A stretch of 64,000 nt of DNA from the NCBI GenBank assembly GCA_963703955.1, contig CAVPGK010000017.1, positions 1 through 64,000 on the forward strand, given 5' to 3'. Every line of letters begins with the position of its first letter. Position 1 is the stretch's first letter. The notes beneath the pieces were generated by a model. It did no database searches. It had not been told where the DNA came from and was given only the letters and a program-made list of their open reading frames with translations. Positions 44,304-49,672 of the stretch are shown one piece after another. Made by a program: the position numbers and the translations under genes. This stretch comes from Nitrospirota bacterium (GTDB lineage Bacteria; Nitrospirota; Nitrospiria; Nitrospirales; Nitrospiraceae).

Positions 44304-45735
44304 TGACGCTTGCGGAAATCACAGCCCCGAAAGTTGAACAACGAGGTCCAGCCGGCGACGGCGAATTTACCTATGTCGACATTAGTAGCATCGACAATGC
44401 GTCGAAGCGCATCGTTGAACCGAAACGTCTCCCCGTGGAAAGTGCACCAAGCAGGGCGCGCCAACGGCTACAGGCAGGCGACGTACTTGTGTCAATGACG
44501 CGACCGAATCTCAACGCTGTTGCGTTGGTTCCGAAAGAGCTTAACGGCACTATTGGTTCAACGGGCTTTCATGTGCTGCGGCCGATGGGTGGGATTGAGT
44601 CGCGTTGGTTATGGTATGCGGTTCAGACGAGTACGCTTTATCAAGTCGATGGCACAACTCGTCCAGGGCGCCCTCTTATCCCGCAGTGAGGCCGAAGGAC
44701 ATACGCAGTTTCGAGCTTGAGGTTCCGGAGTACTCTGTCCAGCTTCGCATCGTCGCGGAGATCGAAAAACAGTTCTCCCGCCTCGACGAAGCCGTCGCCA
44801 ACCTCAAGCGCGTCAAGGCCAACCTCAAACGGTACCGCGCCGCCGTCCTCAAAGCCGCCGTCGAAGGCAAACTCACGGTAGAGTGGCGCAAGCAGCATCC
44901 CGACGTTGAACCCGCCAGCAAACTCCTCGAACGCATCCTCGCCGAACGCCGGGCCAAGTGGAGCGGAAAACGGAAATTCGCTGAGCCAGCGGAGCCAGAC
45001 ACGACCGGTTTGCCTGCATTGCGGAATGGTTGGACATACGCGTCCGTGGAACAGCTTGGCATCATTGGCGAGCAAGCTGTTCTTACTGGCCCATTTGGGA
45101 CAAATCTCGGGCGTGAGGATTTTAGGGAAAGTGGTGTACCTGTGATTACTATTTCGTGCCTGAAAGACACTGGCATAGACCTCACCAAGGCAGAGTTTGT
45201 TTCAAAAGAAAAGGCCAGGGAGTTGGATAGGTATCGATTAAACAATGGTGATCTGCTCTTTTCACGAATGGCTGCTGTTGGGCGCGCTGGCATTGTCGGG
45301 GGAGACTTGCGGGGCTCCCTGTTTAATTATCACATCATGCGCCTACGACTAGAACCCACAATATTGATGGCTAAATACTATTTGGCATACGTCAGAGGGT
45401 CAGCCCAGGTAGAGAATTATATTCGTGAAGTTAACCACGGTGCGACGCGCGATGGGATTAACACTGAACAGCTACTCAACATGCCAGTTGCCCTTCCTCC
45501 CTTCGCTGAGCAGGAACGTATTGTCGCCGAAGTCGAGCGCCGCCTGTCCGTGATCGACGAACTCGAGGCCGCTGTCGAAGCCAACCTCATGCGCGCCGAC
45601 CGCCTACGGCAAGCCATCTTGAGCCAAGCTTTTTCGGGAAAGCTGGTGGCCGCTGGGGAAAGAGGTCACGGGAATTTGAAACAAGAGCTTCCTCTGGCTG
45701 CGGAATCTCCGGCTCTGCATGAGAAGACCCGATGA
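44300..45735 (+). CDS. hsdS: Type I RM specificity subunit, frameshifted near 44640-44680
   Basis: Two TRDs with conserved Q.RIVAEIEKQFSRLD and PP..EQERIVAEVERRLS...LRQAIL..AF.GKLV; GTGA overlap with hsdR. Confidence 0.92.
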
Positions 45736-45836
45736 CAGCTGACGATCGCTACGATGTGTCCGGTCTTCCGGACGCTCAGTTCGAGCCTGGTTCGAACGAC
45801 CAGGTGCTCAAAAACCTCCTGGGCATTATCTCAAGA
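45732..45836 (+). pseudogene. N-terminal remnant of a Fic-family protein
   Basis: DRYD.S...AQFEPGS...VLKNLLGI typical of Fic N-termini; no HPFxxGNGR; ATGA overlap with hsdS. Confidence 0.65.
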
Positions 45837-45887
45837 CCGGAAAGGAAAGAAAAATGTACCGGGAGTCTTCTTCTACGCGCGTTGTCC

Positions 45888-45972
45888 CGCTTGAAGGTTG
45901 AGATTGAGGTTAAGGCCGAGCGAACGCCCGATCCGCCTTGCTGCCGGCCTCAACCTCAGCCTTGCCTCAAGC
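45888..45972. repeat. Long imperfect palindrome built of GTTGAG/CTCAAC-type hexamers
   Basis: CGCTTGAAGGTTGAGATTGAGGTT ... GGCCTCAACCTCAGCCTTGCCTCAAGCG. Confidence 0.65.
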
Positions 45973-45991
45973 GTGCCGCGTTGCGCGAGCC

Positions 45992-46252
45992 TTACTCGTA
46001 GGCTTCTCGGCGGTGGCGAACAGCCGTAATGTCGATGCGTCGCTCTCTATCGAGAATCGAGTAAATGACTCGATAATCACCGATGCGGATCCGCCATAGG
46101 TGTTTCTCGCCGCTCAATTTGCGAGCACCGTGTGGACGAGGGGCGATGGCAAGAGACTCGATCTTGGGGAGGATGCGGCGAATGATGGATGGGTCGAGCA
46201 CTTCCAACTCCTGGCGCGCTGAGCGGGCGAAGGAGATGGTGTATTCAGCCAC
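45992..46252 (-). CDS. relE: RelE/ParE family toxin
   Basis: PRPHGARKLSG...WRIRIGDYRVIY.I...V.HRREAY. Confidence 0.92.
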   Translation of the reverse strand: MAEYTISFARSARQELEVLDPSIIRRILPKIESLAIAPRPHGARKLSGEKHLWRIRIGDYRVIYSILDRERRIDITAVRHRREAYE

Positions 46253-46436
46253 GTAGCTTGCCTAGGCGGCGGAGGCGCTCCCTGACGCCATTCAGAGACT
46301 CTCGCGGTTCACGGGCGCGATTGCGCGCAACGACGCTGTCATAAAAATCTTCCCACAGTTGCCCATGTCGCTTCAGATCAATGAGCACGGCAGTCTTCTG
46401 CCCACGCTTGTTCGTGACGAAATCAATGCCTCTCAT
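46245..46436 (-). CDS. Cognate antitoxin (63 aa)
   Basis: Overlaps toxin start; FVT...G.KTAVLIDL...WEDFYD; GGAGG RBS. Confidence 0.8.
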   Translation of the reverse strand: MRGIDFVTNKRGQKTAVLIDLKRHGQLWEDFYDSVVARNRAREPRESLNGVRERLRRLGKLRG

Positions 46437-46622
46437 GGTGCCTCCGCATCCTCTGGCGTTTTCTTGTCAGAACGTAGCCGCAATCCCTTAAAAATGCAAG
46501 CACCCGAAACCGGGACATTCTCCTTTTCCAGCAACTCCTGCCAGCTATTTAACCCGTTGTCTGGCTCCACGCGATTGTCGCTGCTTCCAAAAATCCGTCC
46601 GCCGAGGTATCCTGCCGCAGCC

Positions 46623-47249: not shown

Positions 47250-47325
47250 AATCGCCTCATTGTGAATCCTCCATTCGTGATAGATTCGGTCTCTTCCCCC
47301 GTCCAGGCGTCGTGATTCAGTCCAT

Positions 47326-47463
47326 ATGAGTCCTTCAGCCATCGTTCAAAAGCTCTGGAACTACTGCAACGTCCTCCGCGACGACAGGATGAGTTACGGC
47401 GACTACATGGAACACGCGATGACCCTCAGCCTGTATGATGACAAGGAGGGTCCTCGTGGATGA
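47326..47463 (+). pseudogene. hsdM 5' fragment, copy 2, forming a 45-aa leader ORF
   Basis: [29 protein letters not shown] then unrelated; stop overlaps the next ATG. Confidence 0.88.
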
Positions 47464-47740
47464 ATATCAGGTTCTATGTTGATCCTGAAACGGACTTGCC
47501 ACACATTTATGGTCACAGGTTGACGAGCGGGAGGTTGAGGATGTATTGAAACAACCGGGGGAGGATAGGCCTGGGCGAGAAGGTTCTCGTGTGGCGATTG
47601 GACAGACCAGGGCAGGCCGATATCTCCGTGTTATTTACGTACCCGATCCAGAACCCGATTCGGTGTTTGTCATTACGGCCTATCAGTTGACCGGCAAACC
47701 TTTGCTGGCATTCCGGCGTCGCAGAAGGAGAAAATCATGA
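47460..47740 (+). CDS. DUF4258/BrnT-like putative toxin; frameshift near 47518
   Basis: MNIRFYVDPETDLPHIYGH...EVEDVL..PGEDR...AIGQT..GRYLRVIYVPD...FVITAY; AAGGAGG RBS. Confidence 0.75.
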
Positions 47741-47937
47741 AACAGAGCAATTTCCCTCCCGGTTGGGATGCAGGGCGAGTCCGTCGGGTCCTCGCGCACT
47801 ATGAAGAGCAGACGGAGGAAGAGGCTGTGGCAGAAGATGAAGCCGCAGCGGAGGACAGGACTCAGACAGTCATGGAAATTCCATGCGAGCTTGTCCCGGC
47901 TGTCAGAGAGCTTATTGCAAAAAGACGAACAGGATAA
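47737..47937 (+). CDS. Putative antitoxin (acidic, 66 aa)
   Basis: ATGA overlap with toxin; FPPGWD..RV..VL.HYE.QTE.EAVAEDEA. Confidence 0.72.
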   Translation: MKQSNFPPGWDAGRVRRVLAHYEEQTEEEAVAEDEAAAEDRTQTVMEIPCELVPAVRELIAKRRTG

Positions 47938-47938
47938 G

Positions 47939-48088
47939 GTGCGAAAGACCTACAAGCCCAAGCGGCGCTCTTGCGCGCTCTGTAAACCGCACAAAGCTGG
48001 CTGGGCCAAGCGATGGAAACCAAAGGAAGCGGAACGTCGTCGTAGCATGCTCGACGATTGCCGACTGGATAAAGACAGAGTGCCATGA
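47939..48088 (+). CDS. Small basic CxxC protein
   Basis: GTG just after the antitoxin stop; RSCALCKPHK. Confidence 0.4.
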   Translation: MRKTYKPKRRSCALCKPHKAGWAKRWKPKEAERRRSMLDDCRLDKDRVP

Positions 48089-48174
48089 TTCCTCTGAGAC
48101 CATTTTCTTCTTGGTTTCTCTTTCAGTCTCCGGACTTCAGCCTCTACCCTGTTCCCTGAATTGGGCCACGCTCT

Positions 48175-49672
48175 ATGAGCCCTTCCGCCATCGTCCAAAA
48201 GCTCTGGAACTACTGCAACGTCCTCCGCGACGACGGGATGAGCTATGGCGACTACGTCGAGCAGTTGACGTATCTGCTGTTTCTCAAAATGGCCGACGAG
48301 CGAAGCAAGCCGCCGTACAACCATCCGAGTCCGGTCCCGGAGAAGTACAGTTGGCCCAGCCTGCTGAAGAAAGACGGCGACGCCCTCTTCGACCATTACC
48401 GCCATCTACTTGCAGAACTCGGCAAGGAAAAGGGATTGCTTGGACTCATATTTGGCAAGTCCCAAAACAAATTTCAAGACACCGGCAAGGCTTGCAACGG
48501 CTGATCAAGGACCTGATCGACAAAGAAAACTGGTCCGCCATGAGCGCCGATGTGAAAGGGCGATGCCTACGAAGGCCTGCTTGAGAAAAACGCGCAGGAC
48601 CTCAAAGTCAGGAGCCGGCCAGTACTTCACGCCTCGCGCCCTCATCAAGGCCATGGTGGATGCCATTGCGCCGAAGCCGGGTGAGACGATCTGTGATCCA
48701 GCTTGTGGGACAGGTGGATTCATGTTCCTTGCCCACAACTATATCGTCGACCACAATCCCAATCTCACCAAGGCCGAGAAGAAGAAGCTGAAGGAAGGGA
48801 CCTTCAAGGGGTGGGAAATCGTGCATGGCACCGCGCGAGTGTGCGCGATGAATCTCCTGCTCCACGGGATCGGTAGCGATGAGTCCATGCCCATCATCGT
48901 CGGCGATGCACTGCTGGGCCATCCCGGTGAGTACTTCGACATTGTGCTCACGAATCCGCCGTTCGGCAAGAAGAGCAGCATCACCATCGTGGGCGCGGAA
49001 GGGGAAGTCTCCAAGGAACGGGAGACCTACGAGCGCGACGACTTCTGGGCCACGACTTCCAACAAGCAGCTCAATTTCCTTCAGCACGTCAAAACTCTAT
49101 CTCAAGATCAACGGCCGCGCCGCCATCGTCGTGCCGGACAACGTGCTGTTCGAGGGCGGGGCCGGGGAGACCGTCCGGCGCAAGCTCTTGCACGAGTGCG
49201 ATGTGCATACGCTCCTGCGTCTGCCGACCGGCCTCTTCTACGCCCAGGGCGTGAAGGCCAACGTGCTCTTCTTCGACAAGAAGCCGGCGAGCGAGACCCC
49301 GTGGACCAAGAAGCTCTGGATCTACGACCTCCGCACCAACATGCACTTCACGCTCAAGACCGATCCGCTCAAGCGCGACGACCTCGACGAGTTCGTGACC
49401 TGCTACAACCCGGCAGAATCGGCACACAGCGCAAGCCAACCTGGTCCGACAAGAACCCCGATGGCCGCTGGCGTGCCTACGACTACGACGAACTCATCAA
49501 CCGCGACAAAGCCAGCCTCGACATCTTCTGGCTCAAAGACGAATCCCTCGAAGATTCCGACAACCTTCCCGACCCCGATGTCATCGCCCAGGAAATCGTC
49601 GACGATCTCGAAGCCGCCCTCGAGCAATTCCGGCTGATTGCGAATGACCTTGGCAGCGAACCGGCAAAGTAG
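48175..49672 (+). CDS. hsdM: Type I RM N6-adenine methyltransferase subunit M, several frameshifts
   Basis: [58 protein letters not shown]. Confidence 0.93.

Follow-up and report, generated by a model that had tools for sequence, protein, structure and literature searches.

Truncated hsdM 5' ends frame toxin-antitoxin and defence cassettes in type I restriction-modification loci of a Nitrospirota bacterium and its relatives

The window analysed here, a stretch of 64,000 nucleotides (nt) from a Nitrospirota bacterium (G000:C17:1-64000, from an assembly that is 82% complete), contains a type I restriction-modification (R-M) locus in which hsdR, hsdS and hsdM lie on one strand with accessory genes embedded between them. 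The 5' end of hsdM is present three times in direct orientation, twice as a truncated copy, here called a stub, and once as the start of the full-length gene. Stubs of this kind frame varied toxin-antitoxin (TA) and defence genes in many related loci. The arrays they form are real and common, and are apparently an undescribed variant of arrays made by anchored recombination. Judging from these products, recombination anchored by homology on one side probably gave rise to the cassettes, which ordinary recombination within the stub then put to use again.

From left to right, the locus consists of hsdR, hsdS, a Fic remnant, an inverted ParE pair, hsdM copy 1, a DUF4258 and a DUF2283 gene, hsdM copy 2, a second DUF4258 gene, its acidic partner, an open reading frame (ORF) of 49 amino acids (aa) and the full hsdM, the start of which is copy 3 (Table 1). 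Copy 1 is 92.6% identical to copy 3 over 163 nt, 20 nt of leader included. Copy 2 (47325-47414, ATG at 47326) has 90% identity to the hsdM start over 90 nt, and the repeat matches had E values of 3e-62 and 2e-27 in a genome-wide search. The original prediction, made from this stretch, had described three direct hsdM 5' copies, a TA-like pair behind each truncated one, and a Fic remnant with an inverted toxin pair between hsdS and copy 1. All of this is borne out: DUF4258/DUF2283 follow copy 1, DUF4258 and a partner without a Pfam family follow copy 2, the Fic remnant is homologous to the intact Fic of genome G002 (76% identity over 37 aa), and the inverted toxin is assigned to ParE by Pfam. 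So is the claim that copies 1 and 3 differ almost only synonymously. In 46 codons there are 8 synonymous differences and 1 non-synonymous difference, an excess with a binomial p of 2e-5 to 4e-4 when the neutral synonymous share is assumed to be 0.2-0.3.

Is this arrangement peculiar to the window? The N-terminal 50 aa of HsdM matched 86 of 301 family genomes; 65 of 85 relatives were taken in, and the other 20 matching genomes, with weak matches or short contigs, were left out, as were a low-complexity locus (L022) and one duplicate cross-phylum locus. This gave 62 family loci of the close hsdM subfamily, of which 41 had both hsdS and a full hsdM within view and 21 lacked one of these; owing to kinship and shared transfers, the locus counts are not counts of independent events. 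Stubs lie between hsdS and an intact hsdM in 28 of the 41 evaluable family loci, the window included, and in 9 of 52 evaluable cross-phylum loci (Verrucomicrobiota, Pseudomonadota, Nitrospirota and one titled Actinomycetes), one of which duplicates a family locus. There are at most four stubs per locus. The distant hsdM subfamily had stubs in 0 of 4 loci, a small sample. When hsdM was compared with its own surroundings in 134 loci, 63 of 77 matches were upstream, on the same strand and began in the first 100 nt of the gene; 3'-end duplications downstream amounted to 4 short matches in 2 loci, among 61 loci with at least 2 kb in view. Among plasmids, 84 records matched, at 85 places in all; at this sensitivity, stubs are therefore rare on plasmids.

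The genes between the stubs are varied. They include Fic, DUF6883/DUF4926, DUF4258 with DUF2283 or YgiT, DUF433/DUF5615, HicAB, MNT-HEPN, DarTG, DUF5131/TcmP, AlbA-RecG, AbiE, HipA_2 and GmrSD-HNH, and several stub-framed genes have no Pfam or PADLOC family. The full hsdM is always outermost on the right and the full hsdR outermost on the left, with the stubs inside. The original prediction was to be given up if related loci never showed variable cargo bounded by hsdM 5' copies; since relatives do show it, in the family and across phyla, that outcome fails. Fic occurs in three contexts within one operon: in the cassettes, directly behind the full hsdM (L027, L028, L040, L045, L046, L051, L061 and L071) and directly behind hsdS (the window and L026). 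Units without cargo, 50-100 nt long and made up of stub, palindrome and new start, stand right before the next hsdM start in L018, L065 and L067; we read them as 5' ends that were replaced or as cassettes that lost their cargo. In L049 and L055, hsdM itself is interrupted by inserts of about 0.9-1.2 kb with no new start behind them; these are probably other mobile elements.

A fourth, decayed hsdM stub is present elsewhere in the same genome (G000:C16:130820-130928, L001:8821-8929), in a TA cluster of Gp49/HTH, DUF433, PIN and HigB/HTH genes, with no hsd genes within 18 kb. Likewise, a stub-framed array in G023 (L021) has no full hsdM match and adjoins an insertion sequence-like element. Stub-framed arrays can thus persist or move without an R-M system.

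What are the stubs? Their codons depart from the consensus protein in 151 of 1656 cases (9.1%), against 19 of 2147 (0.9%) in full genes; 27 of 68 stubs carry indels and 5 carry stops. Among 122 copies, 64 classes of leader can be told apart, and the class of a leader goes with the cargo upstream of it, be the next element a stub or a full gene. A stub and the full hsdM of another genome have a leader class in common for 32 of 69 stubs, a stub and its own full hsdM for 0 of 69. A rank test stood in for a tree of the 5' copies, which offer about 120 informative nt near saturation. The own full hsdM came out as closest allele in 2 of 54 cases, with a mean rank of 0.59; copy 1 of the window is one of those two. 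By these comparisons of sequence, the stubs once were the gene starts of other alleles and are now in decay. The original prediction had seen in the copies different functional alleles and not a decayed local duplication. The leader classes and the rank test uphold the second part, and the first holds in that the alleles are different, as leader classes and the synonymous excess indicate; it does not hold for present function, given the 10-fold greater amino-acid change and the indels. The idea that cargo arrives with a fresh hsdM start agrees with the link between leader class and upstream cargo.

Some stubs also carry palindromic repeats of about 24-33 nt, inserted at fixed places (+50, +59, +80) and sometimes stacked (L018, L029, L043, L044, L048, L050, L061 and L070). 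Such repeats are found in frame after codon 48 of intact hsdM in L035-L037, L050, L058 and L065. Within the coding part of the hsdM 5' end (window 46724-46743 and 48253-48272) there is a hairpin of 8 pairs with a T-rich tail; its exact 21-mer is the commonest form, present in 20 full hsdM genes, and palindromes insert at its left edge.

The ends of 86 stubs are spread over 51-462 nt, and the 87 junctions form 66 classes, with several possible for a single cargo family. In 6 of the 87 (5 classes) the stub is continued by an hsdS 3' end, in frame in two clear cases, and the cargo behind is the same as in a stub-less locus. This is expected if the hsdM part of a donor of the form hsdS tail-cargo-hsdM served as anchor and the donor's other end was joined illegitimately within the 5' end of the resident gene. 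Three further rows of this type were dropped as artefacts of one mis-called hsdS stop. Modules that stand directly after hsdS without a stub, the expected donor state, occur elsewhere with DarTG, Fic, DUF6883/4926, DUF4258, DUF5131/TcmP, AlbA-RecG and AbiE. Microhomology was seen by eye at single joints (L027, L032/L041 and copy 1 of the window). A mirror pattern is found at the other side of the locus, where a full hsdR is followed by TA cargo (PemK, ParE/addiction module, RhuM or DUF4143) and then by a 46-172-nt hsdR 3' stub before hsdS. Of 39 family loci 16 show it, and of 39 cross-phylum loci one does; an hsdR stub is absent from the window. Taken together, the illegitimate joints with hsdS tails and the mirror hsdR stubs make hsdM one of two homology anchors. 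The capture platform proposed for the hsdM 5' end therefore stands in a weaker, recombination-based form and not as a dedicated att-like platform.

The cassettes also appear to have been used more than once. A single Fic junction is present in 9 loci of 5 genera, with 8 leader classes in front of it, and the members of other multi-member junction classes likewise have differing leaders. One junction behind different leaders means that crossovers fell between leader and junction, that is, inside the stub. The stubs of the Fic junction differ by 8% at codon positions 1 and 2, against 39% in the adjacent spacer, which suggests that they have been refreshed from intact alleles by crossovers. ComEC is encoded in this genome, and RecA was found in 5 of 5 relatives.

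We therefore envisage the hsdR-hsdM interval as a variable slot between two conserved anchors. At the birth of a cassette, incoming DNA with an hsdS tail or intergenic DNA, cargo, a leader and hsdM would pair with the resident hsdM, and the donor's other end would be joined illegitimately 50-460 nt inside that gene. The old start would remain as a stub with the cargo behind it, while the donor leader and start would keep hsdM whole. Such an event would be homology-facilitated illegitimate recombination, visible as a long target duplication. A unit of stub, cargo and start has hsdM homology on both sides, so ordinary crossovers would suffice for its later insertion. RecA-type crossovers in the stub could place the unit before any related hsdM, or remove or swap units, and repetition of this step would stack cassettes. 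Stubs, leaders, shared junctions, hsdS remnants and mirror hsdR stubs, all products expected of such a mechanism, are observed. Much more tentatively, the cassettes may be self-renewing and recombinase-free, with the hsdM 5' end and hsdR 3' end as docking arms across genera, a stubbed module able to enter, leave (perhaps as a circle) and be exchanged at the rates of homologous recombination, and a stub ORF that couples translation. If this is true, mobile defence cassettes could be mined from any genome with the stubs as sequence tags.

Several observations weigh against this two-step scheme. Only 6 of the 87 junctions have an hsdS remnant. Transfer of larger blocks would be another way for shared junctions to spread. 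No age order was found along the arrays, the distal stub being more decayed in 9 of 17 arrays and less in 7, with one tie. Leader class is not linked to coding polymorphisms beyond codon ~9, a test of low power, so no crossover site can be mapped; third-position similarity by thirds of the stub, within class, shows no trend either. RecA was not found in this 82%-complete assembly. With one genome per species, no filled and empty pair was seen within a species, and no circle. For copy 1 of the window, none of the read pieces listed bridges the borders, and its closest allele is copy 3, with the 20 nt of leader in common, in a sample with no congener; the likeness fits exchange between close kin, and would fit a local event too.

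Could the repeats instead be long target duplications? In this account, which is unlikely, an insertion driven by a break copies the resident start, later divergence or gene conversion makes the copies differ, and the stub is not re-used as an arm. Insertion of R-M genes with long target duplication has been described by Furuta, Abe and Kobayashi (2010, PMC2853133), and from the accessible part of that paper the likeness is close: long direct repeats (>30 bp) of variable length, an insert without a mobility gene, repeats that often cover a start or stop and thereby preserve the target gene, and methylase genes as possible targets. The nearness of copies 1 and 3 adds to it. In that part of the paper, however, the insert is an R-M complex and the repeats are nearly identical to the empty site, whereas here R-M genes are the target, the inserts are TA and defence genes, the copies come from different alleles (own leader class in 0/69, own allele nearest in 2/54) and the units stack. 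The term hsdM occurs 0 times in the PMC2853133 text. The leader classes of other genomes on 32 stubs, the 8:1 synonymous differences, one junction behind 8 leaders and the hsdS remnants all speak against copying of the resident start, and as a general rule this account is already largely refuted.

It is also improbable that a site-specific recombinase acting in trans, or a Y1/REP-type nuclease, integrates circles at a core in hsdM codons 6-17 or at the stub palindromes. These codons are present in all stubs, each cassette ends in its own leader and first codons as islands that restore a 5' end do, palindromic mini-repeats sit at fixed places in stubs, and tyrosine recombinases (PF00589) have 22 matches in the genome. 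None of these is in the 64-kb window, in keeping with the prediction of an integrase-free array, and the nearest, at C17:122575, is about 73 kb from the locus. The wide spread of stub ends, the mirror pattern at hsdR, which would require a second core, and the lack of a sharp linkage break, a test of low power, also argue against a recombinase. A scan for attC by pattern alone (inverse core ... core) gave 0 core pairs in 45732-48320; across 80 cassettes, pairs turned up in 3, each of them the one Fic unit, against a shuffle mean of 0.8.

Integrons and CALINs are defined by IntI, attC sites, a fixed crossover and a polar order of insertion. The arrays resemble them as tandem series of small, TA-rich cassettes parted by related repeats, and differ in that the window has no IntI and no attC, the crossover is not fixed and the repeats are coding DNA of a resident gene. 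Against the integron-like character that had been proposed, there is no age gradient, no attC-like pair in the window and no constant stub end. Islands of the SXT/R391 type enter the 5' end of prfC and supply a new start. They too leave the old start as a stub, but encode an integrase and use one att core, while the units here measure 0.4-3.5 kb, have no integrase gene and end at variable points.

Retention of stubs for a function, either as leader ORFs coupling cargo translation or as HsdM-N decoy peptides, is very improbable. In the hsdM frame, 14 of 52 junction classes have a stub ORF whose stop overlaps the start of the cargo, against 8 and 0 in the other frames; this is suggestive only, and such an overlap is present at copy 2 of the window. 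The decay of the stubs, in amino-acid changes, indels and stops, points to no selection on a stub peptide. Translation coupling is compatible with recombination at the hsd anchors, as a filter on the junctions that survive.

That the window is a misassembly of strain haplotypes, as the frameshift-rich locus might suggest by its thin local consensus, can hardly be right: cassette 2 can be aligned over its whole length, from the ATG of its stub to that of the hsdM copy behind it, with the complete genome G023, of another genus, cassette 1 aligns with L074, contigs of other sequencing runs bridge three joints, and the single-contig genomes G086 and G142 carry arrays of 2-5 copies. The bridges are at the copy 2 start (run X2, record 13; 125 nt, 2 differences), at the copy 3 start from leader to ATG (run X1, record 5; 92 nt, 0 differences) and at the hsdS-Fic joint (run X4, record 25; 204 nt, 2 differences). 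Other joints in the run contigs were set aside, being accounted for by the repeat itself or by hsdM of other organisms. None of 23 listed runs contains half of the stretch (best share 0.16), and no contig of the 4 runs examined, as contigs only, spans the whole array. The three-copy array is thereby confirmed as real, and misassembly, which the original prediction named as its own refutation, fails. The frameshifts are a separate matter. As assembled, hsdM, hsdS and hsdR are all frameshifted, hsdM with six insertions of 1-2 bases up to 49426, while 11 of 12 other genes tested in the same genome keep one frame. The frameshift at 47515, in the toxin-like gene of cassette 2, is absent from two short-read runs, and this one-base gap is probably an assembly error. 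Together these make a local consensus error likely, with gene decay as the alternative. The frameshifts, mostly one added base, cluster in 41450-49672, as if few reads, from a subpopulation, covered the locus. With these frameshifts in the assembly, the hsd genes of the window may or may not encode an active R-M system.

The closest known systems are the effector-immunity arrays of the Vibrio cholerae type VI secretion system and the orphan modules of Rhs and contact-dependent inhibition loci, which arise through sequential displacement by homology-facilitated illegitimate recombination (PMC5361080); its authors themselves draw the parallel to integrons. As far as the accessible part of that paper describes them, they too have a conserved anchor, a new module beside it, an old remnant pushed away and no integrase, and the arrays then move by ordinary homologous recombination, as we propose for re-use here. 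A conserved homologous anchor and variable illegitimate joints, some with donor remnants (66 classes among 87 junctions, hsdS in 6), are found in the hsd loci. In those systems, however, the anchor stands upstream and an effector domain is replaced by the cargo, whereas the hsd loci have an anchor at either end, what is left over is part of the anchor gene and can act anew as a homology arm, nothing need be displaced, and the cargo consists of unrelated TA and defence genes. Defence genes embedded in type I R-M, BREX, DISARM and Hma systems have been reported (bioRxiv 10.1101/2024.01.29.577857), with accessory genes nested in type I R-M in the same orientation as here, and several of our cargo families match its PDC models. 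The accessible text of that preprint gives no insertion route ('recombination' occurs 0 times), filters out pseudogene-bearing systems and does not describe stubs. The portion of PMC12707154 available contains nothing on such stubs, and a literature search from which subscription journals were mostly missing found no description of hsdM stub arrays.

The stubs would record the route by which embedded defence genes entered, with the homologous side, the donor break point and the re-used units. The recurrence of stub-framed modules in many related bacteria suggests a way for defence genes to accumulate with no integrase involved. Stubs also explain short 'HsdM N-terminal only' ORFs, and are a simple tag for finding candidate defence cassettes.

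Table 1. Features of the hsd locus in the window
Feature	Position	Strand	Remarks
hsdR	41450..44303	+	HSDR_N, ResIII, Helicase_C, EcoEI_R_C; frameshifted pieces as assembled; single 3' end; left anchor
hsdS	44300..45735	+	Methylase_S; frameshifted as assembled; stop overlaps Fic start
Fic remnant	45732..45842	+	first ~37 codons; ORF continues to 46001; hsdS-Fic joint type as in L026
ParE-family toxin	45992-46252	-	Pfam; inverted pair spans 45992..46436
63-aa partner of ParE-family toxin	46245-46436	-	
hsdM 5' copy 1	46626..46788	+	20 nt leader + 142 nt coding; ATG 46646; HsdM_N; former gene start
DUF4258 toxin-like gene, cassette 1	46789..47052	+	own start lost at junction
DUF2283 partner, cassette 1	47049..47249	+	Pfam
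hsdM 5' copy 2	47326..47414	+	89 nt; ORF to 47463, stop overlapping next ATG
DUF4258 toxin-like gene, cassette 2	47460..47740	+	93 aa in G023; DUF4258 E 1.4e-6
Acidic partner, 66 aa, cassette 2	47737..47937	+	no Pfam, NCBIfam or PADLOC family
Basic ORF, 49 aa, third ORF of cassette 2	47939..48088	+	
Leader given by cassette 2 to resident hsdM	48089..48174	+	
Full-length hsdM (copy 3)	48175..49672	+	HsdM_N, N6_Mtase; frameshifted as assembled; right anchor

The DUF4258 match of the cassette 1 toxin-like gene (E 1.6e-4) is under the Pfam cut-off. This gene has no start of its own, the junction being 38 nt shorter than in the homologue L074. An in-frame fusion of copy 1 with it was considered and would need two nearby one-base assembly errors. 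The 49-aa basic ORF accompanies the following leader in several different cassettes. A promoter and terminator scan stayed at chance level, and Rfam had zero matches in 40-52 kb of the window. In 45840-45990, the Fic remnant ends at a motif that also occurs in front of the G023 stub. Behind it, and immediately ahead of the inverted ParE pair, lies a long hairpin with imperfect pairing; this may be a small repeat element.

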